A DNA stretch of 63,893 nt, the filler included, from Chrysochromulina tobinii (Eukaryota), in assembly GCA_001275005.1 (NCBI GenBank). It is 6 parts of 6 records of this genome, joined end to end, with 100 filler letters (N's around TTAATTAATTAA, not from the genome) between each part and the next. Parts side by side here need not be neighbours in the genome. Positions count along the whole stretch, not along the records: positions 51,581 to 57,989 come from JWZX01000243.1; 5 more parts are not named here. One strand, written 5' to 3'. A model generated the notes under the pieces. That model saw only the letters and a program-made list of their open reading frames with translations. It was not told the DNA's origin and did no database searches. The position numbers and the translations under genes were made by a program. The stretch's first letter is position 1. Each line of letters opens with the position of its first letter. Shown piece after piece: positions 1 through 58,875 of the stretch.

Positions 1-2495
1 CCTGCCGCGGCCGCCTCCGCCGCGGCCGCCTCCGCTGCCGCAGCCTCCGCCGCGGCCGCCTCCGCTTCCGCCGCTTCCGCCGCTTCCGCCGCGGCCGCTT
101 CCGCCGCGGCCGCTTCCGCCACGTCCGCCTCCGCCGCGGCCGCCTCCGCTGCCACCGCCTCCGCCGCAGCCGCCTCCACCGCCTCCGCCGCGGCTGCCTC
201 CGCCGCGGCTGCCTCCGCCGCGGCTGCCTCCGCCGCCGCCACCTCCTCTGCCACGACTGCCGCTGCCACTGCCGCAGCCGCTGGCGCCTCAGCAGCAGCC
301 GCTGGCGCCTCAGCAGCAGCCGCTGGCGCCTCGGCAGCAGCCGTAGGTGCCTCCGCCGCAGCCGCTGGTGCCTCGGCCGGAGCCGAAGGGGCCTCGGCAG
401 CAGCCGTAGACGCTGGTCCTTCGGCCGGAGCCGCTGGTCCTTCGGCCGGAACCGCTGGCGCCTCGGCCGGTGCCGTAGGTGCCTCGGCTGCCGCCGCCTC
501 CGCCGCGGCCGCCTCCGCTGCCGCCGCTTCCGCTGCCGCCGCCTCCGCTGCCGCCGCCTCGGCCGTGGCCCCCTCGGCCGCCGCCGCCGCCACAGTTGCC
601 GGTGCCTCAGTCGGTGCCTCAGCTAGCGCAGCCACTTCTGCCTGGTCCACGGTGATCCTCACGCCACCCACTTCCGGAGCTTCAGGCTTCGTCACCTCGG
701 CTTCGTCACAAGGCTTCGTCACATCCACTTCCGGAGCTTCAGGCTTCGTCACCTCGGCTTCGTCACAAGGCTTCGTCACATCCACTTCCGGAGCTGCAGG
801 CTTCGGCGTGGCCCCGGGCGTATCCGCGACCTCCGCAGCCGTCGCCGCCGTTGCCTCCGCCACTGCTGCTGCTGCCTCCGCTGCCGCCGCCTCCGCTGCC
901 GCCGCCTCCGCTGCCGCCGCCTCCGCTGCCGCCGCCTCCGCTGCCGCCGCCTCCGCTGCCGCCGCCTCCGCAGCCGCCGCCTCCGCAGCCGCCGCCTCCG
1001 CAGCCGCCGCCTCCGCTGCCGCCGACTCCGCTGCCGCCGCAACCGTTGCCGCCTCCGCTTCTGCCGCCTTCGCTGCTGCCTCCGCTGCCGCCGCCTCCGG
1101 CTTCGCAGCCGCTACGACCAGCCGCTCCTCCCTCAAAGCCGCGACCGCCGCCTCCGCCGCCGCCTCCGCCTCCGCCGCCGCCGCCACCGCCGCCGCCACC
1201 TCCGCCTTCGCCGCCTCAACCGTCCTCGCCGCTTCCGCATCGGCCGCATCCGCCAATTCCGCCGCCGCCTTGAGCTCCGCCTTGAGCTTCGCCAATTCCT
1301 CATCCTTCGCCTCGAGCTTCGAAGCCATCGCCGCGATCTCGTCATTCTTGCTCTTGAGCTCTTTGTCCTTTTCCACTTCCATTGCAGAGCTGCTCGCCAC
1401 GGCCTGTACTTCAAGCTCCGTCACCTTCGCTTTCGCCGTCGCGGCCGTTGCCATCGCCTCCTCCAGTGCTGTGCGGAGCTCGGCAACCTCAGCCACCACC
1501 TTTGCATGGTCCGCCAGATGCGCTGCGAGATCTGCCTGGGCCTCTGCGATCTCTTTGGCCGCCGCCTCCGACGCCTGCTCCATCTGGCGCTTGGCCAGCT
1601 GCGTGGAGCTCAGCTCGAGCTGCAACCTCGCCGCCTCGGCCTCGAGCGCTGCCTTGAGCGCGGCCACCTGGCCCTTATGCGCCTCTGCCTCGGCCTCGTG
1701 TGAGATGGCGCGCTCCTCGAGGGCTGCTTTGAGCGCTGCGATTTGGCCCTTGTGCGCCACTGCCTCGGCCTCGAGCGCTCTCGAGCGCGCCTCAATTCTC
1801 TCGACCTCCGCCGTCCTCGCATTCTCTATCTGCTCACCCAGCTTGCGCTTGAAACCCTTGGCCTCATTCCGCACACCCTCAAGCTCCTCGTCGGTAGCCT
1901 GGCGCACGGCACGCAGCTCCTGCTGCGTGGCGCCCAGGGCTGTTTCGAGCTCTTGCTGTTGCGAGAGGAGCTGCTGCCGCGTCGCGTGCGCTGCCGCCCG
2001 CTCCGATTCCAGCTGCAGCCGCTGCGTGCGCAACTCCTGCCGCACGCTCTCGGCGTCCGTGAGGCCGGAGGAGCGCTCGGTTCGGAGGCTCTCGAGCTGC
2101 TGCCGCGCCGCGCGGCCCTCCTCGAGGGCATCCTCGAGGCCCTGCTTCGCCATGCGGGCAGCGCGCACCTCCCGTTCCTCGACCTCGCGAAGCTTGGCTT
2201 CGGCCTCGGCGGTGCGCGCGCTGTACTCGATCAGCTGGGCCTGCGCTTGCTGCACCTCCTCGGTGCGATTGACCAGCTGAGCTGTCACCTGCTCAAGCAT
2301 ATGCAGGACCGGCTCGAAGAGCGTTTGGCCACCCACCTTCGCTATGGGGTCGTCATCCTCCAGGAACTCCCTTTCAGCCCATGCGTTGCTAGCGACAGTG
2401 GGGCTTCTGTAGCTGAACTCGACGTGCGAGTCAGACTGGGTTAGCCTGGGTCGGCCTTGCCCTTCGACGGTCAAGCGCCGACTCGTATCCGACAT
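1..2495 (-). CDS. Long coiled-coil protein with Ala/Glu-rich (EAAAA)n C-terminal region; 3'-partial (runs off window start)
   Basis: The minus frame is open from about 2435 to the window edge (...LHMLEQVTAQLVNRTEEVQQAQAQLIEYSARTAEAEAKLRE...) and is heptad-like and E/A/K/R-rich. It is absent from the ORF track because its stop lies outside the window; + ORF 565..2280 is its antisense shadow. The start at ATG 2495 assumes a tentative 25-nt intron at 2436-2460. Confidence 0.7.
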   Translation of the reverse strand, partial: MSDTSRRLTVEGQGRPRLTQSDSHVEFSYRSPTVASNAWAEREFLEDDDPIAKVGGQTLFEPVLHMLEQVTAQLVNRTEEVQQAQAQLIEYSARTAEAEAKLREVEEREVRAARMAKQGLEDALEEGRAARQQLESLRTERSSGLTDAESVRQELRTQRLQLESERAAAHATRQQLLSQQQELETALGATQQELRAVRQATDEELEGVRNEAKGFKRKLGEQIENARTAEVERIEARSRALEAEAVAHKGQIAALKAALEERAISHEAEAEAHKGQVAALKAALEAEAARLQLELSSTQLAKRQMEQASEAAAKEIAEAQADLAAHLADHAKVVAEVAELRTALEEAMATAATAKAKVTELEVQAVASSSAMEVEKDKELKSKNDEIAAMASKLEAKDEELAKLKAELKAAAELADAADAEAARTVEAAKAEVAAAVAAAAEAEAAAEAAVAALREERLVVAAAKPEAAAAEAAAKAAEAEAATVAAAAESAAAEAAAAEAAAAEAAAAEAAAAEAAAAEAAAAEAAAAEAAAAEAAAAEAAAAVAEATAATAAEVADTPGATPKPAAPEVDVTKPCDEAEVTKPEAPEVDVTKPCDEAEVTKPEAPEVGGVRITVDQAEVAALAEAPTEAPATVAAAAAEGATAEAAAAEAAAAEAAAAEAAAAEAAAAEAPTAPAEAPAVPAEGPAAPAEGPASTAAAEAPSAPAEAPAAAAEAPTAAAEAPAAAAEAPAAAAEAPAAAAVAAAVVAEEVAAAEAAAAEAAAAEAAAAEAVEAAAAEAVAAEAAAAEADVAEAAAAEAAAAEAAEAAEAEAAAAEAAAAEAAAAEAAAA
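670..795. repeat. 57-nt coding tandem repeat (~2.2 copies)
   Basis: acttccggagcttcaggcttcgtcacctcggcttcgtcacaaggcttcgtcacatcc occurs at 670 and 727 and partially at 784; it encodes DVTKPCDEAEVTKPEAPEV on the minus strand. Confidence 0.85.
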
Positions 2496-3057
2496 CCATC
2501 CTCCGCCGGGCGTCCGAGGCGGCCCCGGGAGCGAAGATGCCGAGCCGTGTCGTTGCAGAATTTGTTTCTGATATGACGTAGGTTGAAAGCCATCTGATGC
2601 GTTTCGCCGCATCTGAAGCAGGCTTCGACCGCGCCAGGACTCTGGACGATTGTGTGGGGCTTGCTCTCACAGGTTGTTGGCGAAGAGGAGCCTATACAGT
2701 AGGTCGTGGAGCAACGCAGAAACGCACGGAGACGAAACGCGTCGTCATGGGCGAGTCAAGTTTCAGTCAGATGGTAGAGGTACTGTGCGGGGCTCTTGGA
2801 AGCCGGCGGCCCAGTAACTCGTTCTGCTTAAATAGGTGCCGTTAAAAGCGAATACGTCGTGAACCGGACAGCGCAGTGCACAGCGTTCAGCGGGCGCGTG
2901 TCGTAACGCGTGTCTCGCTCGAACTTGCCTGTGAAGCAACCGCGGGGCAGCTCGCGATGGCTATGCGGGAATCGGGCAATCGCCAAGGCGTTGATCGCAA
3001 TTGATCTCCACGTCTCCTATCTCCGCTCGACGATCGGCTGACTATACTTACGGACTC

Positions 3058-5553
3058 TCAAACCACGCCATGCGTCCACACAAACATGTCGACGGGCGGG
3101 TTGGGTGGGACGGGCGGCCCGTGCGCGACCAGAGGCACAGGTGGCCATGGCCCCTTGGCTGCATCGGCGGCGGGACGCACCGCGCAGTGCTGCTCACGCA
3201 GGACGAGCCGATTCCTCAGATGTGCCACGAACCCGTCGGGGGCATCTAGGCCGCGAAGGCGTCCCTCGAGCTTCGTGAACACTTTGGCTCGCTGGTCGTC
3301 TGGGGGGGCGCCGACCCGCGACTTGGTGAGCGCATCGGGCGGAAGCAGCTGCAACTGCAACTCGCGCTTGAAGAGGCCCGAGTACGTGAAGCGCTCCCAA
3401 ATCTTGGCCATCTCCGCCTGCATGGCCTGGATGGTGGCGGGGGGGATCGCTTGGAGAATCTTGACGATGCGCGGCAGGTCGGCGCGGGGTATGCGTACGC
3501 TGAAGGCGCTCATGTTGAGGACTCCCTCGAGCTGCACGTGGATGTCAGGCATGATGATCACCGGGATGCATCCATGGATGACGGGCTCCTCAATGTGGCC
3601 CCACCCATTGCCCGGCAGCACCACGCAAAAGATCGAGCGCTGGAGGTCGGCGATATAGTCGCGCGAATGGCCGCCCACCAGCAAGCAGCCGTCCTTGTCG
3701 CCGCCCGGTGGGCACGCGTTCTTGAAGTTCTTCATGTGTCCCGGGTCGGCGCACTTGCACTGGTCGGGATGGCCATTGACGTAACTGTACAGCTGCTGAC
3801 GAAGTCCAAACGAATACGCCGGCTGGTTGACGTGCGCGTTGCCTCGGAAGTTGAGCAGCACATTCCGCGGGGTGAGCTTGCCCGTGAGGTAGGGAGAAGC
3901 CTGCACGAAGCCTCTCGACTTGAAGATGGGAAGGAGCACGTCCTTTCCCGGCTCGAAGCAGCGCTCGTGACCGTACATCTGCTCCTTGTATGGACTCACG
4001 TGCCAGCCGTGCCCGGCCGAGGTGCTTGTATGGTTCGGAGGGTGGCGAGTGAGCCGGCCCCAGTGCGAGACGAAGATCGCGGCCGTAATCTCCTTCGGCG
4101 CCAAGCAAGCGCCCTCGTCGTGCGGGAACGTGAAGATATGGTCGGCGCCCCCCGAGCGATCCCAGTAGGGGTACGTCGTACGAATGTGCTCAAAGGCCTT
4201 CCGATACACCCCCGAGGCGCGCGCTGCCCGAGGAAGCCGCACCTCCGGGTCTTCGTGTATCATCGAGCCAAGGTCGTGATGACGCGGCGTGGGCCGCGAG
4301 AAGCGCGACATCCAGCAGCCTCCCCAGACTGGCACGAAGAAAAAGTCCGCAGTCTCCGGGTCGAGCACGCGGTGCGCCGAGTGCAGCAGGCGCTCATAGA
4401 GTGCCACTTCCATCCCGAAGGCGTGCTGCTTCCAGTCCGTCGAATTCGTCTGCGTGTAGCTGCGCAGCGCACAGTCCTCATCGCGATACTTCTCAGTCCA
4501 CAAGCGCAAGTTGAACTCGATCGGCAACTCATAGATGTAGATGGCTGGGTAGGGCGTGTTTGGAGGTTTCGCACGGCCACAGGCGCTTCCGCCACTCGGA
4601 GCGGCCAGCGCGAGCGTGCCAGCGTGACCCGGTTCGAGGAGCGTAATTCGGCCGTTGCGGATGGAGCAGTCGACGCCATACCAACCAGGGTCACATCGGC
4701 AGAAGCCAAAAGAGCAAGTACCACGACCGTTGCACTGGTTGAGGCACGCGTGGAGCACCACGTGCTGGCACAGATGCCCCGTGGTGCCTTCTTGGCAGCG
4801 GCATGTGATACTCGGCGCCTCGCCAACCTCGGCGTCGCACCAAGCCACGTGGCCGGGCCTCCGCTGCCGAGCTGGATCAGACCACGCCTTGTGTCCACGC
4901 AGGTACGCGGGCGCGTCGGTCACGGACGACCAGAAGGCGGTGGGGCTTTCGACGACGGTTTCGTAGTCCCAGCCGGGGCCGTCCCAGCGCATGTACGGGT
5001 TGATGTCGCGGAAGACGCATTTGGCCATGCTGCGCCGTGGGAACTTGCCTCCGCCGCAGTAGCAGCGTGACTCGTCCAGGTCGCACTGGCCACTGCACCG
5101 GCCGACGAGCTGCTCTCCGTGCGGCAGGTTGCACGGGAACGGGTCTGGGCGCTCGCACCCGGGCCCATCACGCCCCATCGGACACAAGCACCTGCCTGTG
5201 TCCTCGTTGCACACGCCGCGGCCGGAGCAGTTGAGAGGGCACAACCGAGGGCCCCACGATGGCGATGGTGGCAGCGGCGTCGGCGACAGCGCCGTCGGCG
5301 GCTCGGAGGCCGTCGGGTCGTCATCCACACGCTCCGAGCGCCGTCGGCGGCGCTTGCCGTGGCGGTGCTTCGGCGCGCGCCCGCGAGGGTGCGGCTGCGC
5401 ATCTCCAGCGGGTGCGAGGGTGCGCCTCTCCAGCAGTAACACAGGTTTCGTAGAATGCTGTGCGTGATCATCCGTGAGCCACTGCAGCGCGGTGGCAAGA
5501 AAGAGGCCGAGCACGAGGCCGACGAACACCGAGGCACGCGTGCTCCAACCCAT
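3058..5553 (-). CDS. Exostosin-family (GT47) glycosyltransferase with N-terminal signal anchor and EGF-like repeats
   Basis: N-terminal TM (VFVGLVLGLFLATAL); EGF-like CPLNCSGRGVC...C.CP.G..G..C and CLNQCNGRGTC..G.C.C..GW.G.DC; GT47 motifs IYIYELP, RVLDPETADFFFVP, PYWDRSGGADHIF..HDEGAC, SIFC...PGNGW, GCIPVII. Likely start MGWSTR at 5553. Confidence 0.9.
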   Translation of the reverse strand: MGWSTRASVFVGLVLGLFLATALQWLTDDHAQHSTKPVLLLERRTLAPAGDAQPHPRGRAPKHRHGKRRRRRSERVDDDPTASEPPTALSPTPLPPSPSWGPRLCPLNCSGRGVCNEDTGRCLCPMGRDGPGCERPDPFPCNLPHGEQLVGRCSGQCDLDESRCYCGGGKFPRRSMAKCVFRDINPYMRWDGPGWDYETVVESPTAFWSSVTDAPAYLRGHKAWSDPARQRRPGHVAWCDAEVGEAPSITCRCQEGTTGHLCQHVVLHACLNQCNGRGTCSFGFCRCDPGWYGVDCSIRNGRITLLEPGHAGTLALAAPSGGSACGRAKPPNTPYPAIYIYELPIEFNLRLWTEKYRDEDCALRSYTQTNSTDWKQHAFGMEVALYERLLHSAHRVLDPETADFFFVPVWGGCWMSRFSRPTPRHHDLGSMIHEDPEVRLPRAARASGVYRKAFEHIRTTYPYWDRSGGADHIFTFPHDEGACLAPKEITAAIFVSHWGRLTRHPPNHTSTSAGHGWHVSPYKEQMYGHERCFEPGKDVLLPIFKSRGFVQASPYLTGKLTPRNVLLNFRGNAHVNQPAYSFGLRQQLYSYVNGHPDQCKCADPGHMKNFKNACPPGGDKDGCLLVGGHSRDYIADLQRSIFCVVLPGNGWGHIEEPVIHGCIPVIIMPDIHVQLEGVLNMSAFSVRIPRADLPRIVKILQAIPPATIQAMQAEMAKIWERFTYSGLFKRELQLQLLPPDALTKSRVGAPPDDQRAKVFTKLEGRLRGLDAPDGFVAHLRNRLVLREQHCAVRPAADAAKGPWPPVPLVAHGPPVPPNPPVDMFVWTHGVV

Positions 5554-6116
5554 TCCAATGGTTCGTCGGGAGCGCGCTCGCGCCACACACCAGTGTGTGC
5601 TGGGGAGCAACACCTAGAACAAACACAGGTGTGAATGTGAATGTTTGTTTACGTACCGTTCAAAACACCAATGGGAGCCGGGACACACGGGACAGAGTAC
5701 TTTGTACCGTTAACTCGGACGCCTCTTGTCGCGTACTGTCGCCTACTCGGAACTCGCAAGCTCGCGGAATCAAACCGGAATGTACGTCTATCCGGTGGTC
5801 TGGCTTGCATCAGGCTTGCAGAAGTATCGAGCAGAAGTAGGTGTTGAGGAGGGGCGTGGGGCCACGTCCGAGACCGACCATTGCGCACGATAGGCGTTCC
5901 CCACTCCGCTCTTACATGTCTGGCCCCAGGCCGCGCCATGGGGGCCAATAAGGTCCGCATGCAATGTGCACCTGAACGCCCACTCCGCGCACTGGCACCC
6001 ACAATTGTAACTCAAGATTCCGCATACTAACTCAAGATACCCAGCAACAAGGCTCCACATCCCACATGATGATAATCCCCGCGCCCGCAGACGGCTTCAT
6101 GGCTATCGCGTGCATA

Positions 6117-9100
6117 TCAGAATCGTCGGAAATCGCCTTGTTCAAGCGGTTTCGTCGCCGGGGCTACGGAAGGGAGAACGGTTCGCCACTTTGACTCATC
6201 CAGGCGAACGGTTCGCCACTTTGACTCATCCACGACGCGCTTCCAGTACTCGTCGCCATCCCTAGCGTTCTGCTCTAGCTGCTCGAGGCGGTCACTGTCC
6301 TGAGTCATTTGTTCATTATTGTAGAGCTTGAAAAACTCGAGCTTCGGCCACTGCTTCTCAAGAAGCTGCTTCTCGAGAAGCCACGCCGGAGGCACCGTGC
6401 CGGTCAATCGGTTGTTGGTCAAATCCACATTTTCGAGCGCCCGGCAGTTTGCGAGCGTGTCCGGAATCGCACCGCTCAGCTGATTGTGGTTCAGGAACAA
6501 ATCCTTAAGCTTCGTCAGGCCCGCTTCCTTGTGCAACCGAGTGAGCTCCTCAAGCCGTGCCTCATCCTTTTTGCCCATCTTGGAGCCGCTTTTCTTGGCC
6601 TCTTCTTTCCGTTTCGCGAGCTCATTCATCTCCTCCTTCTCCATGGCCGACAGGCCACCGAACATCGATGGGATGCAGCCCGTCAGCTTGTTGTTGTCGA
6701 GACAAAGGCGCTCTAGATTTTTGAGCTCGCCGAGCTCTGCAGGCAGCTCGCCAGTGAGCTCGCAGAAGTTGAGGCTCAAAGTTTTGAGCTTCGTCATGAG
6801 CTTGAAGGCCCTCGGGATCGGACCTTTGAGGCTATTATAGCCCAGATGTAGGGTGTCCATGTCTGCACAGGTCGCGAGCTTCTCCGGGAGCGTGCCGTGA
6901 AGTCCACGGCCCTTGAGGTCGAGCCTACGCAGCCGGCGGCAATGGAGCTGCTGGTCCCGCTTGTCGATGAGCAGGTCGTGCAGCGAGCAATTGAAGTCAT
7001 TCAACTTTGACTGCCGCAACGAATCCTCAGTGACAGGAGGCCAATGTTTTTTTCTTGTCCCCTTCCACGCAGCCTGCCACGCAGCCGAAAAGCCTGCCAG
7101 CGAAAGCTCAAGTAGAGGGCACTCGTCCTTCTGCAGCAGCTCTTGTAGCTTCTCCTGATGCCCATCGAGCGTTGCGTAGGGGCACTTGAGGCAGAGCACA
7201 ATGCCCCTACCCGCGCGACAAAGTGCTTGCTCGGTGAGCTGGCCCTGATGCTCAACCGTCTCCGGCTCGAGCGCACCGAGGATGCGCGCTCCCTTGTAAA
7301 GCACGTGAAGATCGTGCTTGAGATCAAAGAGTGGCTTGACGTGCAGCTGCAGCTCGGCGAGGATCCAGCCCGAGTCCTCAAGGTTGAGCCAAAGGTTGAG
7401 AAGGACGTCGCGGTTACCTCCGGCTTTAATTGCGTCGTAGTCGGGCTTGATGCGATCCTTGGCGCGGCAGACAATTGCGCGAGACAAGTGGGGCGATACC
7501 CCCTGATAGCCCTTGTGCTGGTCGTTGCCGGTCCAATGTCGCAGCTTGCCGTCGTCTCCGCTGGTGAGGAATCTCATGGCGACGGCCAACGCGTGCAAGG
7601 ACGGAAAGACAAGGGTGCAACGCACGAGATCGCAAAGCTTCCGGTAGTTGCCGGCATATTCTTCAGCAACCTTGGCGCAGCAGCGCGGCACGCCCTTGAT
7701 TGAAGGGCCCTTGTGTGTCACCTTGCCCTTCGCATCTGGGCACGTTTCCTCAACATGCGTCTGGACCGCCGTCATAACCTTCTCAAGCACTGGAACGGCT
7801 TTCTTCGCCTTGTGGATCAACGCCAGTAGAGTGTTGAGAGCATCGTCGGCGCCGGCGCCACTGGGTTGCACCATTTCCACATTGAGCTTGTTCACCTCTT
7901 CGCAGCGCACCTTCATGTACTCGAGTGCGTCTTTCTTGATTGCCGGTGCATCCTCCTTGTTGCGCTGCTTCTCGTCTTTGAGCAGCTTTGCGTACGCTGC
8001 GTCGAAACGGAAGACCGACTGGCTTAGGAGCGGGTTGTACTGCGAGATCGCGTTGTCACGCCGGTCAGGGTATCTCTTCTCCAACTTCTCCAAGTCCTTC
8101 GCCTTCTCCGAAATTTTCTTCTCGAGCTTTGTGATTTCCTTGTTGTGATTAGCAAGGTCTTGCTCGCGCATCAACTCTGTACCCATTTCCTTCATCTCCT
8201 TGAGCTGATGTGCGAGTTCATCGATGGTGGTCCTCATCCGAGTCTGCGCGTTGAGCATGGCCGAGCATTCCTCCACGCACAATGCCACAGGCACAACGGA
8301 CTTGCTCAGGTTGGACGAATCGAAGTGTTTGAGCAGCGCGTCAGCATCCAGAGGGTCGGGTTCCACTTCCTGCTGCTGCTCTTGCACCTTCGGCGGTTGA
8401 AATTCACCGTCTCGTGAGGAGTCGTCGGATCCTTTGACCGAGTGCAAGGCAACCCTCAGAGCCTCGTCTTGAACCGAATGGTCGAAGAGGAACATCTCGT
8501 CATCTTCCCGGAGCTCCTTTTCGAATCTATCGTGGTGCGATCGGTCCACTTGACCCGGCAGGACCTGCCCATTCGCCGCGCACGGGAACATGTTGTCAAA
8601 CTCTTTGCGTACGAAGTCCACGTTGACATCCCGCCCTGTGGTGAGCGCGCGCAAGCGGCCTCGGCTGTACACCATCTCCCAGGGCGCAAAGCAGCCGCAG
8701 ACAAAGACCTGGTAGTTGTGGTTCGTGCGCGCGCGACTCATCAGTTCTCTCAGGAACTTATCTGGCTCTTTGCCCATTGTGTCGTAGACGACATGGTAGC
8801 CAGCGACGAACGCACGGTCAACAAAGGCGTCCGTCATCTCCTTCTTTTTGTGCGGCCAGAGCATCTTCTGTCGCACGAGGAACTGCGAGCGCATGGTGGC
8901 GCTCGAGAGCGCGAGGTAGTGACCGTCGACAGTGAACCCGTCCTCTTGGAACTGGCCGTCGGGCGAAATCCACTTGGTAGGCTTCAGCCGGTCGCCATAC
9001 TCCTCCTGCACCGACGGCAACTTCGCTGCGTGAGCCCCGGAGATGCACAGGCGGTACTCGCGGCAGTACATTCGACACTCATCGGGGTCGAGGTGTACAA

Positions 9101-52004: not shown

Positions 52005-53000
52005 TCACGCGAGCGCGACGCGCTCATTCTCCATCATGGCGGCGACGGCGGGAGTGAGCGTCACGCCGCCCACCCGCTTGTACTCGCCCGGCTCGCACAC
52101 CACCGGCACCGAGTAGAAGAAGCCCTCGCCCATGCCGTAGTCGCCCGTGGCAGGCACACCCATCGACACCCATTTGCCGTCGGAGCCGAAGACCAAGGCC
52201 TTCATGTGCGCGACGACCGCGTCGGCGGTCAGGGTGGCCGGGGCAGGCCCCACCTTTGGCAGCGGCTCCTCCGTCACCTTGAGCGCCCACTTGCCGCCAA
52301 CAGTCGCGTGCGACACGTCAGCGACGCCCCTGCCCCACGCGATCACATTGGACACTTCGTGCGCAGGCACTTTGGCGGCGTCGGCGAGCGCCTTGGCGGC
52401 GGCGAGCTCGACGTGAAGCGTGACGGCCGTCACGGTCGCCTTGGTCGCCTTGGCGACCTTCGTGGCCTCAGCGCAGGACATCACCGCCACAAGCGCGCCG
52501 GCATCTGCGCCCGAAGCGTCGCCCTCGAGCGCGAGCACGTACTTGGCGCCCTTGACTCCGCCGGAGCTCACGCCCGCGAGGAGCGGGAATCCGCAGCCCT
52601 TGAGCTCCGCGGTAACCGCGTCATTCGCACCCGCAAGCACCAGGTTGACCGGCTGGTCGAGGCCGAGCATCTCGCCCGACGCGATGCGGAAGAGCACGCT
52701 GGCGCCGACCTCGGAACCGGCGCCGAGCACGGCGACGGTGACGGGCGGCTTGGCGGGCTTGGACTCGAGCATCGCCCACACCCACGCCATGTTGTCCGCC
52801 TTGACCTTATCGATGGTCGCGGCGAACGCCGGGTTGCCCTTGATCAGCGCGTCGACCTGGGAGTACGTGGAGGCGCCCGACTTGTCGACCGCCTCGCTGA
52901 TGGCCTTCAGCTCGGGGACGAGCGCCTTGACGCTCGCTGCCTTGATGGCCATCGTGCGCACGTGCGCGCGCGCGCTCAGGCGGACCGTCTGGGAAAGCAT
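52005..53000 (-). CDS. Degenerate MDH1-type malate dehydrogenase homolog (probable pseudoenzyme) with mitochondrial presequence-like N-terminus
   Basis: [41 protein letters not shown] and WVSMGV...G.YG..EG..YS.PV.C match cytosolic/bacterial-type MDH, but the substrate loop and catalytic D/H are missing. The N-terminus is Arg/Ser-rich and acid-free. Confidence 0.8.
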
Positions 53001-53236
53001 GGCTCAGCGAAGTCCTGCTCAGACCCAAGAGGGCTGTGGCACTGTGAACGTGAAAAGATGAATTGCTAAGACGATCACCCCCCCCACTTGCGAAACCCAT
53101 CTCACCCGACGGAAAGCGTGCCCTTGATGCCCATCCTCTGACTTTCGAACTCGCCCATGAGCGGTCAGCTTCGTCGCTTGATTTCATCAAGAACGTCACC
53201 CGACTGTGCACCCCGACCGAGTCGCTCCCCAGACAA
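53001..53236. promoter_or_regulatory. Putative bidirectional promoter between the two MDH-family genes
   Basis: 236 bp between divergent ATGs at 53000 (-) and 53237 (+); positional inference only. Confidence 0.5.
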
Positions 53237-54372
53237 ATGCTGCGCGCTGCCTCCTCCTCGGCCCGCACCGCGTCGCGCGCGCTGACGACGGTGACCGCCG
53301 AGCGCGGCATCAAGGTGGCCGTGCTCGGCGCGGCTGGCGGCATCGGCCAGCCGCTATCCATGCTTTGCAAGCTCTCGCCGCTCATCGACGAAGTTGGCTG
53401 CTATGACGTCGTGGGCACGCCCGGCGTGGCCGCGGACCTGTCGCACATTCCCAGCAAGGCGAAGATCACGGGCAACCTGCCGTCGTCCGGCACCTGGCCG
53501 CCCTCGGGCAACAAAGGCCTCGAGGCCGCGCTCACGGGCGCCGACATCGTCATCATCCCGGCAGGCGTGCCGCGCAAGCCGGGCATGACGCGCGACGACC
53601 TGTTCAACACGAACGCGGGCATCGTGAAGACGCTCGTCGAGGGCTGCGCGAAGTTCTGCCCCAACGCTGTCCTCGGCATCATCTCCAACCCGGTCAACTC
53701 GACAGTGCCCATCGCGGCCGAGGTGCTCAAAAAGGCGGGCGTCTACAACCCGAAGAAGTTGTTGGGCGTGACGACGCTCGACGTGTGCCGCGCGAACACG
53801 TTCGTGGCCGAGAACCAGAACATGGACGTGAGCAAGCTCAACGTGCCCGTCATCGGAGGCCACGCGGGCATCACTATCCTGCCGCTTCTCTCGCAGGTGC
53901 CGTGTGCCAAATTGAGCGACGCCGACCCGAGCGTCGTGATGGCCTCTGATTGCCTCTGATTGGGCTTGATTGCCTCCCTCATCAGGTGCCGGGTGCCAAA
54001 TTCAGCGACGCCGACCGCGAGAAGCTCACAGTGCGCATCCAGTTTGGTGGCGACGAGGTGGTGGCGGCGAAGGCGGGATCGGGCTCAGCAACCCTCTCGA
54101 TGGCGTACGCGGGCTTCCTCTTCACCGAGGGGCTCATCAAGGGCATGAAGGGCGAGGATGTCACCATGTGCGCGTACGTGGAGAGCACGATCACGGAGGC
54201 GTCCTTTTTCGCGTCGCCGGTGAAGTTCGGCCCCGAGGGTGTGAAAGAGGTGCTCGGCTTCGGCACGCTCTCCGCGTACGAGAAGGTGTGGTTCGACAAG
54301 ATGATCCCGGACCTCAAGAAGCAGATCGCCAAGGGCATCGAGTTCGCCAACGCCAAGCCCGCCGCCGCCTAA
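53237..54372 (+). CDS. MDH2: Mitochondrial malate dehydrogenase; exons 53237-53896 and 53986-54372
   Basis: Presequence [72 protein letters not shown]; exon 2 has [22 protein letters not shown] phase-0 GT-AG intron joins the frames. Confidence 0.97.
53897..53985 (+). other. 89-nt GT-AG intron whose 5' part duplicates the downstream exon
   Basis: cag|gtgccg...cctcatcag|gtgccg; removing it restores a continuous MDH sequence (LLSQ|VPGAKF). Confidence 0.92.
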
Positions 54373-54482
54373 ACGCCCCGTCACCGGTGGACGTTATGTG
54401 GAGTGACCACAGTGCGCGCTTGGATCGGACGGCGCTTGAATCGGATGGCGCCGAGTTCGTGCCCGTGTGGGCGCCCCGAGCC

Positions 54483-54507
54483 AGAGAGAGAGAGAGAGAG
54501 AGAGAGA
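54483..54507. repeat. (AG)n microsatellite
   Basis: Run of ag dinucleotides 3' of MDH. Confidence 0.9.
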
Positions 54508-54652
54508 AGCGGGGCAGCTCTAGAGGCCAGCAGGCAAAGAGTACCTCCTGAACTAAACTTCCTTGTCAACTACTTTCTGCGGACTTTATTTCTTTGTGGT
54601 CGCGTGAGGTCATCTGCTATTCCCAAGCGCCCTCCGTCGCACCGCATCCGCC

Positions 54653-55639
54653 ATGGTGAATAACGAGCGTTTGAACCGGCTTCCCTCGCTCGCGACCCAT
54701 GTGCCCCGCCCACTATCGTCATGTATCCTGTCACCCGCCGCAGGCCGACGAGGACCTGCCCAGGCCCGAGGAGATCGAGGTCGAGTTTCAGGACCTCTAC
54801 CGCCATGATGAGGAGCAAGCCTACTGCACCTTGATGGCGCAAGACATCAAGTCGATCAATTTCCCGTGCGAGGAAAACTACACCGTCCGCCTCTGCGTAA
54901 GCCAAAGCCGCCCCAATACCCCTTCTTGGCACGCCAAGAGCGCTCACAGCGAGCCCTCCCGTGGCCCACATGCTCACAGAAGGAGCTGGTCACCTACCAC
55001 AACCCCAGCACACATCCGATGGGCTCGTTCGAGCTGATCGCATCGAACCGCATCCGCTCGGATGAGGAGACGCTCGGCGAGGTCTTCAACGGCCAGCCGT
55101 ATTACACGGACAAGGAGCCCGCTGAGGACCCCGACTTTGACTGGGTGCCGCGCAAGGAGCAAGTCTTCTCGGACAAGCAGCTGATGCAGCTATCGGTGTG
55201 GAAGAAGGAGTGGGACGACGATACGAACTCGTACGAGCCGATCGACCTCGGCTACAAGCCATACGGCTACCAGCAGACGCGCACCTGGAAGAAGCTTGGG
55301 TTCTTGGATGAGGAAGGCAAGCTGAAGTCGGAGGGTCAACTGATCGAAGAGGGTAAGGTCACAGACCCTGAGGACGTTGCCAACTACTACAAGAAGCAGG
55401 ATACGATCAAGGTGCTGCGGGAGGAGTACTGCTTCAAGCGCGCACATGCGGTCGAGTGCGTTAACGACAAGGCCCTGAAGGAGAAGGGCTCGGTCGAGGA
55501 GGCGCTCGAGTGGTTACGATTCCACAAGGAGAGGGATTTTGACGAGGCGATGGCGCTGAAGAAGAAGAAGGATGAGGGCGAGGAGATCACGGTGGTCGAG
55601 AAGGAGGATGAGGGCAAGGAAGAGGACTTCGACAAGTGA
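54653..55639 (+). CDS. Three-exon acidic protein, possibly with a ubiquitin-like N-terminus and UBA-like C-terminus (exons 54653-54655, 54744-54896, 54980-55639)
   Basis: GT-AG introns 54656-54743 (ATG|gtgaat...ccgcag) and 54897-54979 (gtaagc...cacag) join ORFs 54699 and 54866 in phase. The C-terminal L.E..F.R..A.E.......SVEEALEWL is UBA-like. Confidence 0.7.
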
Positions 55640-56036
55640 GCATCATGACCCGCTGGCTCAGGACGAGGCGGCGCGGTTTAAATGAGTGCGTTTCTGCCCC
55701 GCACCATTAGTACAGATCAGTCAGTTAGGGTTGCGTATAATTTTTCGAACACGGAAGGCTCGGAGTCGTCGGTCATTGTCGTCGGTGGGACTTAAGTTTC
55801 GACTAATCTCTAATGCAGTAGCTCACGCCACCCGGGAGGCACCAAAGCCATGGTTCGAAGCTCAAAAAGGCGCCCACCATCCGCACCGCGACGAAGGAGC
55901 GGACTGTAAGAGACAGTCGTGATGCTGGCGCGATCGCGAATAAAACATGAACAAACGACAAGTGCTCGCTTTTGCTCGCGTCTGAAACGCGATGCATGTC
56001 GGGCGAGGCGTTGGTGGGCATGCCTTGGAGACAGCC

Positions 56037-56449
56037 ATGCTTCAGGCGACCAACCTGTTCATGGGCGCAGCGGCGATGAGCAACCTGCTGATGAGCCCGA
56101 CCAGAGCACCAAGCAGGTCGCGTCACACCGCGTCAACGTCGACTTCAAGCTCTTGATCGATCATGTCTCGGCGCTCGAGTACGCCACCGAGTGTGCGACT
56201 TCTGAAGCTTACAACACCATCTTCACCGCGCAGGCCTCGTCGGCAGCGCCGCAGGCCCTGCAAGCTGCTACGACGGCGGTGCAGCCGCGTGAGGCCCTCC
56301 TTGCCGCCATGCCGTTACCATGCGAGCTCGACATCGCCCAACGCCCTGGCGCGAGCCCGCCAGGGTCTGAGAGAGAGCTCAAGCAGACGGAGGCGGACGG
56401 CCTTAAGACGGCCTCGGCCGGCGCAGACACAGCCGGCGCGTGCGCGTGA
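56037..56449 (+). CDS. Small hypothetical protein (3' part of ORF 55919..56449)
   Basis: Coding-like stretch HRVNVDFKLLIDHVSALEYAT; the start is not defined and no family is recognised. Confidence 0.3.
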
Positions 56450-56830
56450 AAGCCTGGGCTGCCTCGCCGCGTCCGAGCTGTAACTTATCGGAAGCTGTCT
56501 CCGAAAAAAGACTCCCGTGAGTGTGATCGGATGTAACGCGACGTAAGAGTTAGAGCAGCTGTAACCGATACACCGATTCCCCACGCGCGCACCATGCCCC
56601 GACGTGTCCGCCGCGAACCTCAAACGCCCACGCACCGCGTTCCACCCTGTGGCCAACAACATACGCAACACATCATGCACACAACGTTCCGTGGCACGCA
56701 GTCTGCGGTCTGCACGGGCGGAGTCCGGAGAGCTGCCAGGCACCACCCAGACCCACCTCGCACGCGGCGGCCCCTCGGCATGCGCCATGCGGGCCCGTCA
56801 GCGCGGCGTCGACACGTGCTCGGGCGTCGC

Positions 56831-57766
56831 TCACTTGAAGACGGCGACGGTGAGCGGCACCTCCCTCAGATGCACCTGGAAGAGGCCGCCACCCATCTCC
56901 ATCGCGTCGACCACCTTGAGCTTCGTGCCTGGGTAGAGCAAGACCTCCGCCTCGCTCGCTACGCCCTGGAACGCCGAGTAGCGCTGCAGGTCGACGCCGT
57001 GCACGATCTCGATCATGAAGACGGTGCGCACGCCGCTGGTGCCGAGGAACATCGGGTTCGTCAGCGTATGCAGCTGCTTGGTCGTCGACGAGAAGGCCCA
57101 CCACCAGACCTCCTTGTCCTTGGGGTACTGGGCGCGCAGGTCGACGCCCTTGACGCCGCGCCAGACGGAGCCCGTGTACTTGGGCAGCTTGCTGCGCGCC
57201 GTCAGCATCAGCTGCAGGTACGGGAAGAAGGGAATGAGGGCGGAGCGGTCGCGTGTGCGCAGCAGTTGGTTGAGCGTCGGGTAGAAGTCGCTCTGTGCCG
57301 TGTACAGCCACAGCGCGCCCGCCTCGTCCGCGTCGAGGCCGTGCGGATCGGCCGCGGCAAGCTGCGCCCCCGCCTCACTCGCCATGAAGGCGTGCGCGTC
57401 GATGTCTTCGACGCCGCTCGCCGCCGCCGCGTCCATGAGCGACAAGCGCACGCACTTCATCACCCCTGTGATCGGGCCCATGAGCTCGAGCGGCTCGTCG
57501 GAGACGTCGGCGATGCGTGCCTGCTGGGCCACACTCTCTGGCGCAGCCTTCGCGGCCGTCGCCTTCGCGGCCGCCTTCTTCTCGGCCGCCGCCTTGTCCG
57601 CCGCCGCCTTGTCGGCCGCCGCCTTGACGGCTGCCGCCTTCTCAGCCGCCACCTTCGCGGCCGCCGCCTTGTCGGCTGCCGCCTTGTCGGCCGCCACCTT
57701 CTCGGCCGCCGCCTTGTCGGCCGCCGCCTTGTCGGCCGCCACCTTCGCGGCCGCCGCCTTGTCCCA
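56831..57766 (-). CDS. NAD:arginine-type ADP-ribosyltransferase (R-S-E clade) with (AAADK)n linker; 5' part unresolved
   Basis: LWLYT....FY..LN..LR, VWRGV (R), WAFSSTT (S), FLG..G.RT.F.I, YSAF....EAEVLL.PG (ExE). A probable acceptor cacag lies at 57767-57771 and the upstream exon(s) are not identified. Confidence 0.88.
57545..57765. repeat. 15-nt-period low-complexity coding repeat (AAA[DE]K/VAA[DE]K)
   Basis: ccgccgccttgtcgg-type units in tandem. Confidence 0.85.
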
Positions 57767-57989
57767 CCTGTGTCGAAGCGCACGGGGAACGCACGCTGTT
57801 GGCGCTGAGCAGTGGCGCCCATCACGGCGCGTCATCGCATGCCATCAGGAAGCGCGAGGGCTTGCGAAGGGCGGTCGTGAAGCTGGCAAGGCAGTCACAG
57901 AGGCAGAGGAGGCAGCAGCGCCCTCTCCGAGGACAACGGCGTGGGGCGACGGCGTGGGGCGACCGAGTGCTGCCTGAGTGCTGCTGAGT

Positions 57990-58089: not shown

Positions 58090-58875
58090 ATTGTGGAGCT
58101 GTGTGGCCAAATGGTTCACGGGTCGATATTCGAGGCGAAGTCGGATTTCGATGCACATCTCCAAAGATCGCGAGACACCACATAGCTGGAGGCCCATATA
58201 CCGAGTCTAGATACTATATGGACTCATACAACACAGAGAATCACGCCATCCCAAGTCACTGTCGCCACTCAGATGTCACATTGTGACCCCGAGTACGGCC
58301 TGTGAGGTCGCGTTTTGGTCGCATTTTGGTACTTGGCCATGCAGAGCGACTTGAGATGGCGTGATTATCGGTGTTGTATGAGTCCATATAGTCTCTAGAC
58401 TCGGTATATGGGCCTCCAGCTATGTGTTGTCTCGCGATCTTTGGAGATGTGCATCGAATTCCGGCTTCGTCTCGAATGTCGATCTACTTATTGTCTAAGG
58501 TCAATTTCGATGCACATCTCCAAGGATCGCGAGACAGCACATAGCTGGAGGGCCTTTGATCGAGTCTAGAGACTATATGGACTCATACAACAGCGAGAAT
58601 CACGCCATCTCAAGTCACTGTCGCCACTCAGATGTCACATGGTGACCCCAAGAACGGCCTGGAAGGTCGCGTTTTGGTCGCATTCTGGTACTAGGGCTAT
58701 GCAGAGCGACATTGAATGGCGTGATTATCTGTGCTGTATGAGTCCATATAGTCTCTAGACTCGGTATATGGCCCTCTAGCTATGTGCTGTCTCGCGATCT
58801 TTGGAGATGTGCATCGAAATCCGACTTCGCCTCGAATATCGACCCGTGAACCATTTGGCCACACAGCTCCACAAT
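58090..58875. repeat. Nested inverted/tandem repeat (foldback/MITE-like), four arms in alternating orientation
   Basis: Arms at approximately 58090-58257 (+), 58348-58482 (-), 58505-58616 (+) and 58708-58875 (-) share ttcgatgcacatctccaa.gatcgcgagaca.cacatagct...gagtctaga.actatatggactcataca...aatcacgccat. The two ~90-nt loops are also homologous to each other. Confidence 0.9.

Follow-up and report, generated by a model that had tools for sequence, protein, structure and literature searches.

An intron of Chrysochromulina tobinii that joins a copy of the next exon to a shared repeat body, probably made by repair-type copying of an existing intron

Introduction

The gene for mitochondrial malate dehydrogenase (MDH) in the haptophyte Chrysochromulina tobinii/parva (its protein cluster includes KOO53399.1 of C. 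tobinii and a C. parva protein) is interrupted by an intron whose 5′ end repeats the start of the following exon, which raises the question of how such an intron is made. The gene lies in a window of 63,893 nt, the whole stretch of DNA analysed here, joined from six records of assembly GCA_001275005.1. A preliminary description had proposed intron birth caught in the act, by insertion of a repeat cassette with a long target duplication as donor. The intron was compared with RNA, protein clusters and metagenomic loci, and was set against known routes of intron gain. With high confidence, it combines 31 nt copied from the next exon with a 58-nt body shared with other introns; the full reading, in which it arose by repair-type copying of a piece of an existing intron with duplication of the target, is considered probable.

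Results

The MDH intron is spliced and carries a copy of exon 2

The features of the gene are collected in table 1. Re-measurement gave the described match between the two copies, 32 of 34 nt identical at a spacing of 89 nt with mismatches at 53903/53992 and 53914/54003, and this is the longest direct repeat within 53000–54600. The length of the duplication is 31 nt if counted from GT or 34 nt if counted from CAG, and the MDH site alone fits both, because the leading CAG is the end of exon 1 and also the family's own 3′ end. The rest of the intron was likewise found to be a 10-nt repeat ending in the tail. The branch-point consensus is YTRAY, and each CTGAT or TTGAT in the 10-nt units is a candidate branch point. 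Terminal inverted repeats were absent from the body ends among the 25 longest repeat pairs listed. A Pfam match to a decapeptide as translation of the 10-nt repeat was rejected, the reading frame being wrong.

Table 1. Features of the MDH gene and its intron (window positions).
Feature	Position	Strand	Description and basis
MDH exon 1	53237..53896	+	220 codons, ending ...LLSQ, CAG; reading frame, RNA, protein cluster, PF00056
Intron	53897..53985	+	89 nt, phase 0, GT..AG, after Gln220; frame, skipped in 3/3 RNA runs
Duplication, upstream copy	53894..53927	+	53897-53927 intronic, source of the GT donor
Inserted body	53928..53985	+	58 nt; head, imperfect 10-nt repeats, family A tail with AG acceptor
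Body head motif	53929..53944	+	elsewhere only in the L039 parent/daughter pair and its other copies L008, L040, L077
Four imperfect 10-nt units	53937..53976	+	TGATTGCCTC-like; repeat inspection
Family A tail	53967..53985	+	TGATTGCCTCCCTCATCAG, high-copy; contig depth, recurrence of the tail elsewhere
Duplication, downstream copy	53983..54016	+	53986-54016 is the start of exon 2, retained in mRNA
MDH exon 2	53986..54372	+	stop codon 54370-54372; RNA, PF02866

Removal of the intron gives a 348-aa MDH, and the unspliced reading meets a stop after 240 aa. Splicing was borne out in all three RNA runs, where exactly 89 nt with GT..AG ends were skipped (assembled contigs, indicating presence and not level). 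Nine letters at the junction fit either side, and downstream of it the three runs show no other letters, so the mRNA carries the downstream copy. In one DNA run, which may be the source of the window itself, the unspliced form stood on a single contig with 0 differences. Summed contig depth over the tail was 4,667–6,065 against a baseline of 42. Downstream on the same strand, 54656–54743 and 54897–54979 are two ordinary RNA-supported GT..AG introns that have no repeat body, so the family does not account for all introns of the genome.

Elsewhere in the window, a transcribed 331-aa ORF at 52008–53000 (−) stands head-to-head with the MDH gene, the starts lying about 240 nt apart. It gave no Pfam match at 1e-5; by eye its motifs look MDH-like, and it is possibly a degenerate MDH paralogue. 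The region 56000–57850 is multi-copy, with DNA depth at 3–8 times the baseline and numerous variant contigs. It holds an ORF with an ADP-ribosyltransferase domain at 56834–57844 (−), and a similar domain occurs in locus L034. At ~58300–58700 low-GC sequence holds a direct repeat of ~100 nt at a spacing of 359 nt.

The intron is not newborn and is probably lineage-specific

Absence of the intron from orthologues had been suggested as a check, and protein evidence agrees with it: homologues read through the site. Of the 120 homologue clusters that matched best, the window's own is the only one to depart from MDH sequence there; 11 others break elsewhere yet read through the intron site (the breaks are probably unspliced DNA) and three stop short of it. 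This protein evidence points to a lineage-specific gain. Both differences from the homologues (Gly>Cys, Phe>Leu) lie in the upstream copy, and the exon copy agrees with the homologues at both. P0003 (MDH 85% identical, 12-kb contig) reads through the site and appears to enter an intron 12 codons after it, just beyond the end of the duplicated stretch. P0143 encodes an uninterrupted 348-aa MDH two residues off that of C. tobinii, on contigs of up to 7,857 nt; it might be an intron-less allele, or it may be a spliced gene call.

The window's protein cluster has 28 members from several collections, with differing letters. Among the 15 listed, 14 read into the intronic copy; these have Cys, Tyr or Gly at codon 223, and four of the 14 are frameshifted. 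The remaining one, P0134, looks chimeric. Since 14 of 15 listed alleles read into a variable or frameshifted copy, the intron is widespread and its copy is decaying, and 'caught in the act' was too strong a phrase for it; the polymorphic member of the family is another intron, at L039:10555 (below). The same read-through in 14 of 15 listed members, from several collections and with differing letters, shows that the MDH intron is no assembly artefact. That the segment is an artefact or unspliced noise, a reading helped by the possible identity of the compared DNA run with the window's source, is ruled out for practical purposes by the RNA splicing, the diverged alleles from other collections and the dozens of loci described next.

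The tail recurs at many loci, often with an exon copy upstream

A metagenome scan with the 19-nt tail returned at least 146 stretches in at least 144 loci (828 kb), all but a few of which appear to be C. tobinii/parva as judged overall and not per locus; the expectation that the tail defines an intron-generating family was thus upheld. Its 300 matches comprised 224 unique ones, reduced to 124 by dropping array-internal copies, contig edges and duplicates. At 57 of these 124 listed tails an upstream copy of the sequence after AG was found with a score of at least 10, and at none of 300 mismatched pairs (maximum 9), which substantiates the claim that 5′ ends copy the downstream exon. The copies measure 11–60 nt at ~95% identity, and lengths in multiples of three are not favoured. 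The 67 listed tails with no copy are assumed to reflect decay or copying of whole introns. Tandem arrays of tail plus copy made up 18 of the 57, and 39 were single copies, 36 of which start GT or GC; no AG stands upstream of 21 of these 39, so the duplication supplies the GT and the insert supplies the AG.

The family A tail is followed by GT in 94/124 cases and by GC in 17/124, and G stands at +5 in 62/124 targets compared with 29% of coding GT. The targets are thus donor-like, a trait that could stem from selection, from microhomology or from the spliceosome. An untargeted scan found, among the matches listed, a second tail with the same duplication footprint, family B (GCATGCAAGTGCTCACCACGGCGCC...CCCCACAG). 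With relaxed patterns, copy scores of at least 12 were obtained for 78/191 tails of family A, 21/44 of B and 4/15 of C, against null maxima of 10 (A) and 9 (B) except for one pair at 100, read as a duplicated locus. A search of viral contigs for the tail gave 0 matches. In prokaryote genomes 28 single matches were found, about the number due to chance (17 expected), and these served as negative control: the maximum copy score among the 28 was 7, and one was followed by GT.

By codon position, mismatches between copies number 16:15:31, the pattern predicted for an intronic copy under free drift and an exon that varies at third positions alone. Of 73 copies, 25 are still identical; from these sequences the activity of the family looks both long-running and recent. 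Tail density was 49 in 288 kb of flanks, a figure biased upward, versus 1 in the 64-kb window. By rough extrapolation the 59-Mb genome (genome size from the portion of Hovde 2015 consulted) would hold about 1,000–10,000 such introns. Similarity between family copies does not extend to both intron ends, the 5′ end being the locus-specific exon copy; one intron pair, at L044, is similar end to end. Two genes, at L010:296–11348 (−) and L044:3574–10612 (+), are densely populated by family introns; each has over 20 tail matches, almost all of them on a single strand. Arrays of exon copy plus tail inside one intron occur in L017, L021, L054, L078 and others, as unequal exchange between two copies would give, and array length in L002/L004 differs between assemblies.

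Family members behave as introns of genes. A codon model trained on these same loci placed 154 tails in sense and 11 in antisense, with 82 uncalled. Removal restored the frame in 21 of the 21 callable among 82 single-copy sites, including 12 with no upstream AG, an outcome that a clean insertion with duplication would in part guarantee by itself. At L010, 3/4 RNA runs showed a family B intron of 99 nt spliced as predicted, with a non-AG donor (GGC|GT) and 15 letters of ambiguous placement, and two weakly predicted introns (118 and 86 nt) were confirmed in 4/4. Records in three RNA runs end there at the first mismatch of a 60-nt copy, the joint itself being absent among the matches listed. A predicted 82-nt intron proved to be 168 nt long in RNA and is, by eye, an older intron that took a second insertion at its 3′ end. 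The same locus drew 519–640 contigs per RNA run, with summed depth of up to ~1,500 over the tails; either unspliced family introns are numerous in these RNA libraries or the libraries contain DNA.

Three layouts have one footprint in common

A search for repeat bodies between direct repeats gave 133 cases: class I 41, class II 19, class III 19 and no solution 54, counts that are biased because the class I tail was used for sampling. In class I, to which MDH belongs, the duplication gives GT and the insert AG; class II is its mirror image, the body starting with GT and the copy ending in AG; in class III AG|GT lies within the copy and the insert gives filler and branch point. Classes were assigned by machine, and some class III cases are class I by eye; also by eye, the 54 unsolved cases are false pairs or further insertions at old donors. 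GT..AG solutions numbered 71 on the repeat strand versus 22 on the opposite strand, and 79 versus 52 with GC donors included, a contrast that is then weak. The longer the copy, the shorter the body tends to be (rho −0.55, n=62, capped at 130 nt), and together they mostly make up 64–110 nt, which suggests a minimum intron size. Microhomology of at least 3 nt to the repeat unit was present at 7 of the 20 testable junctions (of 54), against 3% in the null.

The three layouts argue against an element with fixed ends. Of the proposed cassette insertion with a long target duplication as donor, the footprint stands and the single cassette does not: that footprint is shared by two or three types of tail, by bodies that differ from locus to locus and by all three layouts. 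Target-primed reverse transcription (TPRT) typically leaves a fixed 3′ end, a ragged 5′ end, a variable duplication and microhomology at the 5′ junction. Non-autonomous SINE-like retroelements moved in this way, with the 3′ end fixed at AG, 5′ truncation and retention where the duplication starts with GT, would account for class I, which displays all four traits with its 11–60-nt duplication, and for the compact consensus of family B. In class II the SINE-type polarity is reversed, and class III occurs as well; bodies are locus-specific and end in no poly(A), and antisense copies are almost lacking. A structural-RNA head was not encountered, Rfam giving seven weak matches and none at gathering score in L001, L010 and L070. 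A whole intron, with its foreign exon copy, has also been duplicated within one gene (L044, below), and SINE-like retroelements are on balance unlikely.

An HUH transposase of Replitron type that moved short non-autonomous pieces is considerably less likely still. Viewed on the other strand, a class I insertion directly follows an RC dinucleotide, has one end that is precise and one that is fuzzy, and leaves a duplication of variable length. In these traits and the dinucleotide target it recalls Replitron-1 of Chlamydomonas, for which the part of PMC10288648 consulted describes targeting of RG in a specific orientation, a right end that is fuzzy and duplications that vary; the same text reports one Replitron locus in C. 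tobinii. Replitrons as described there differ in being elements of 0.9–3.6 kb with terminal direct repeats and Rep, and that text does not report them as intron makers. Terminal direct repeats are lacking here, folding of five sequences gave no consistent structure or hairpin (z −2.3 to +0.9), and the bodies are too variable and the layouts too many for such an element.

An empty allele and two parent introns

Of 83 sites, 15 were found in a second locus (most of the 15 being overlapping or same-strain contigs) and one of these was empty. It is the 79-nt intron at L039:10555, which has identical 28-nt copies and is exactly absent from the syntenic genomic contig L077, of another assembly and 98.6% identical to L039 over 2,776 nt; L077 retains a neighbouring family intron and intergenic DNA. 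The young intron's body is a match to this neighbour, which lies 438 nt upstream of it. At one position it shares a T with the neighbour on its own haplotype, against a C in L077 and L008. Exact loss as the alternative would explain this haplotype match less simply.

The empty allele also bears on plain tandem duplication of an AG|GT exon stretch, in which duplication alone would make the intron and the tail would come later by expansion or conversion. In the consulted part of PMC3443670, where in vivo support is reviewed, the exon duplication supplies the splice site or sites as it does here; CAG|GT stands on both MDH copies, and class III resembles such a product, which MDH also formally fits. 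This route is nevertheless rated very improbable. Copy and body are lacking together from L077, complete bodies are already flanked by perfectly identical copies, upstream AG is missing at more than half of the single-copy class I sites (above), and the MDH intron is not an exon duplicate alone, a foreign family body of 58 nt standing between the copies.

At L044 an intron of 101 nt has 97/101 letters in common with another that sits 2.9 kb off at a non-homologous position and whose exon copy it carries; TCG|GCAAGC stands on both donors, which fixes the direction of copying. Two daughter introns, at L039 and L044, thus trace to a parent intron within the same gene. Among 81,510 ordered pairs, in a search for inherited exon copies that was swamped by adjacent exons and repeats, only L044 was clear among the matches listed and in a stricter rerun. 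Near-identical family A tails made up 8/112 pairs within 4 kb versus 138/17,455 elsewhere (Fisher p 4e-6, pairs not independent), and gene conversion could mimic some of these. Mean tail similarity did not rise in cis over trans (p=0.50), and family B gave no cis signal (p=0.70). Similar cis pairs had 2.9 exon-start letters in common versus 2.0 (n=16, p=0.018). For MDH itself no family neighbour lies within the 64-kb window and the 16-nt head is common only to the L039 pair, so its body was presumably copied in trans, or its source has since gone. The C>G difference in the upstream MDH copy is present in 14/14 alleles and makes the copy resemble the 16-nt body head; it may date from the insertion itself.

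Origin in the same gene and haplotype would also follow if the spliceosome guided the process, wholly or partly excised intron RNA being partly reverse-spliced into a donor-like transcript site, reverse-transcribed and recombined, with the long duplication at the other junction. Strict sense orientation, junctions exactly at AG or GT, donor-like targets and repeated hits at borders of existing introns suit this account. Orientation and precision are explained by selection too, class III requires no intron end, and the excess of exon-start letters together with the L044 flanks common on both sides indicates an unspliced template; guidance of this kind is regarded as rather improbable, a little below the SINE-like route.

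Discussion

Proposed mechanism

Repair-type copying of resident introns is the route we slightly favour. A broken or stalled strand would prime on a resident intron via short homology, often G/GT-GCG at its 3′ junction, ~20–100 nt of that intron would be copied during repair or fork restart, and the strand would return 11–60 nt further along the gene through a second short homology, so that the stretch between exit and return would be duplicated. The template could be DNA or an unspliced transcript. Selection would retain only those products whose removal restores the exon, which would give the three layouts. Each new intron could in turn serve as template, and no autonomous element would then be needed. 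Donor-like targets and precise AG ends are explained equally well by selection, microhomology and spliceosome guidance.

Relation to known systems

A literature search found no account of this system in the sources covered, most subscription journals lying outside that coverage. In working it is a variant of known routes of intron gain, introner-like and break-repair-like, large and apparently active. Introners of Symbiodinium and Polarella (classes 4/5, 6/8/10) agree with it in an AG from the insert, a donor from the duplication, many copies, clean removal and flexible layouts. Their duplications, in the consulted parts of bioRxiv 10.1101/2022.06.06.494994 and 10.1101/2020.10.14.339549, are fixed per family at 3–8 nt, often with TIRs; here, in contrast, the duplication is variable (11–60 nt) and there are neither inverted ends nor a common 5′ end. 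Set against the introner definition of Gozashti 2022, as far as the consulted text gives it, the family consists of clean spliced insertions in exons at many unrelated positions, but lacks similarity at both ends. For an introner of the TIR DNA-transposon (MITE) kind, the short fixed duplication is missing, and so are the TIRs, as judged from the longest repeat pairs at the MDH body ends and from five folded sequences. Introner family 5 of a marine Chrysochromulina sp. TARA MAG (PMC9860276, consulted in part) is of the same genus and has the polarity of class II, carrying the 5′ site and co-opting the 3′ site; it is set apart by its described 4-bp duplication, on description and not sequence.

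The neointrons of Daphnia pulex, attributed in the consulted part of PMC4202315 to repair of staggered double-strand breaks, have exon repeats of 4–12 bp and AT-rich inserts of mostly unknown source. According to that text they resemble the present introns in a length of ~80 nt, a copy of the adjacent exon at the opposite end, internal repeats and later repeated hits; here as well, a recent insert was found to have a direct repeat of the exon next to it at its far end. The present introns differ from them in long copies and a source traceable in other introns.

Significance

The origin of new introns has been debated for a long time, and most gained introns have no traceable source, as stated in the consulted parts of PMC3443670 and PMC4202315. 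Here, in an alga available in culture, sequence reveals the vacant site, the intron of origin, the direction in which it was copied and a clock (intron versus exon copy). Tandem duplication, break repair and intron transposition, usually listed apart, are joined. The family also marks a blind spot of introner surveys: the 2025 survey of 8,716 genomes by Gozashti, in the portion consulted, lists C. tobinii with 0 introner families, against the roughly 1,000–10,000 introns extrapolated above. Whether these introns arise in a transposase-free, ongoing chain reaction, with thousands made from fragments of resident introns, often of the same gene or haplotype, and with 11–60-nt exon duplications, is in our estimate an even question. 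If they do, introner screens would be blind to them, because one end is always local exon sequence, and the duplications would give every event a direction and a clock.
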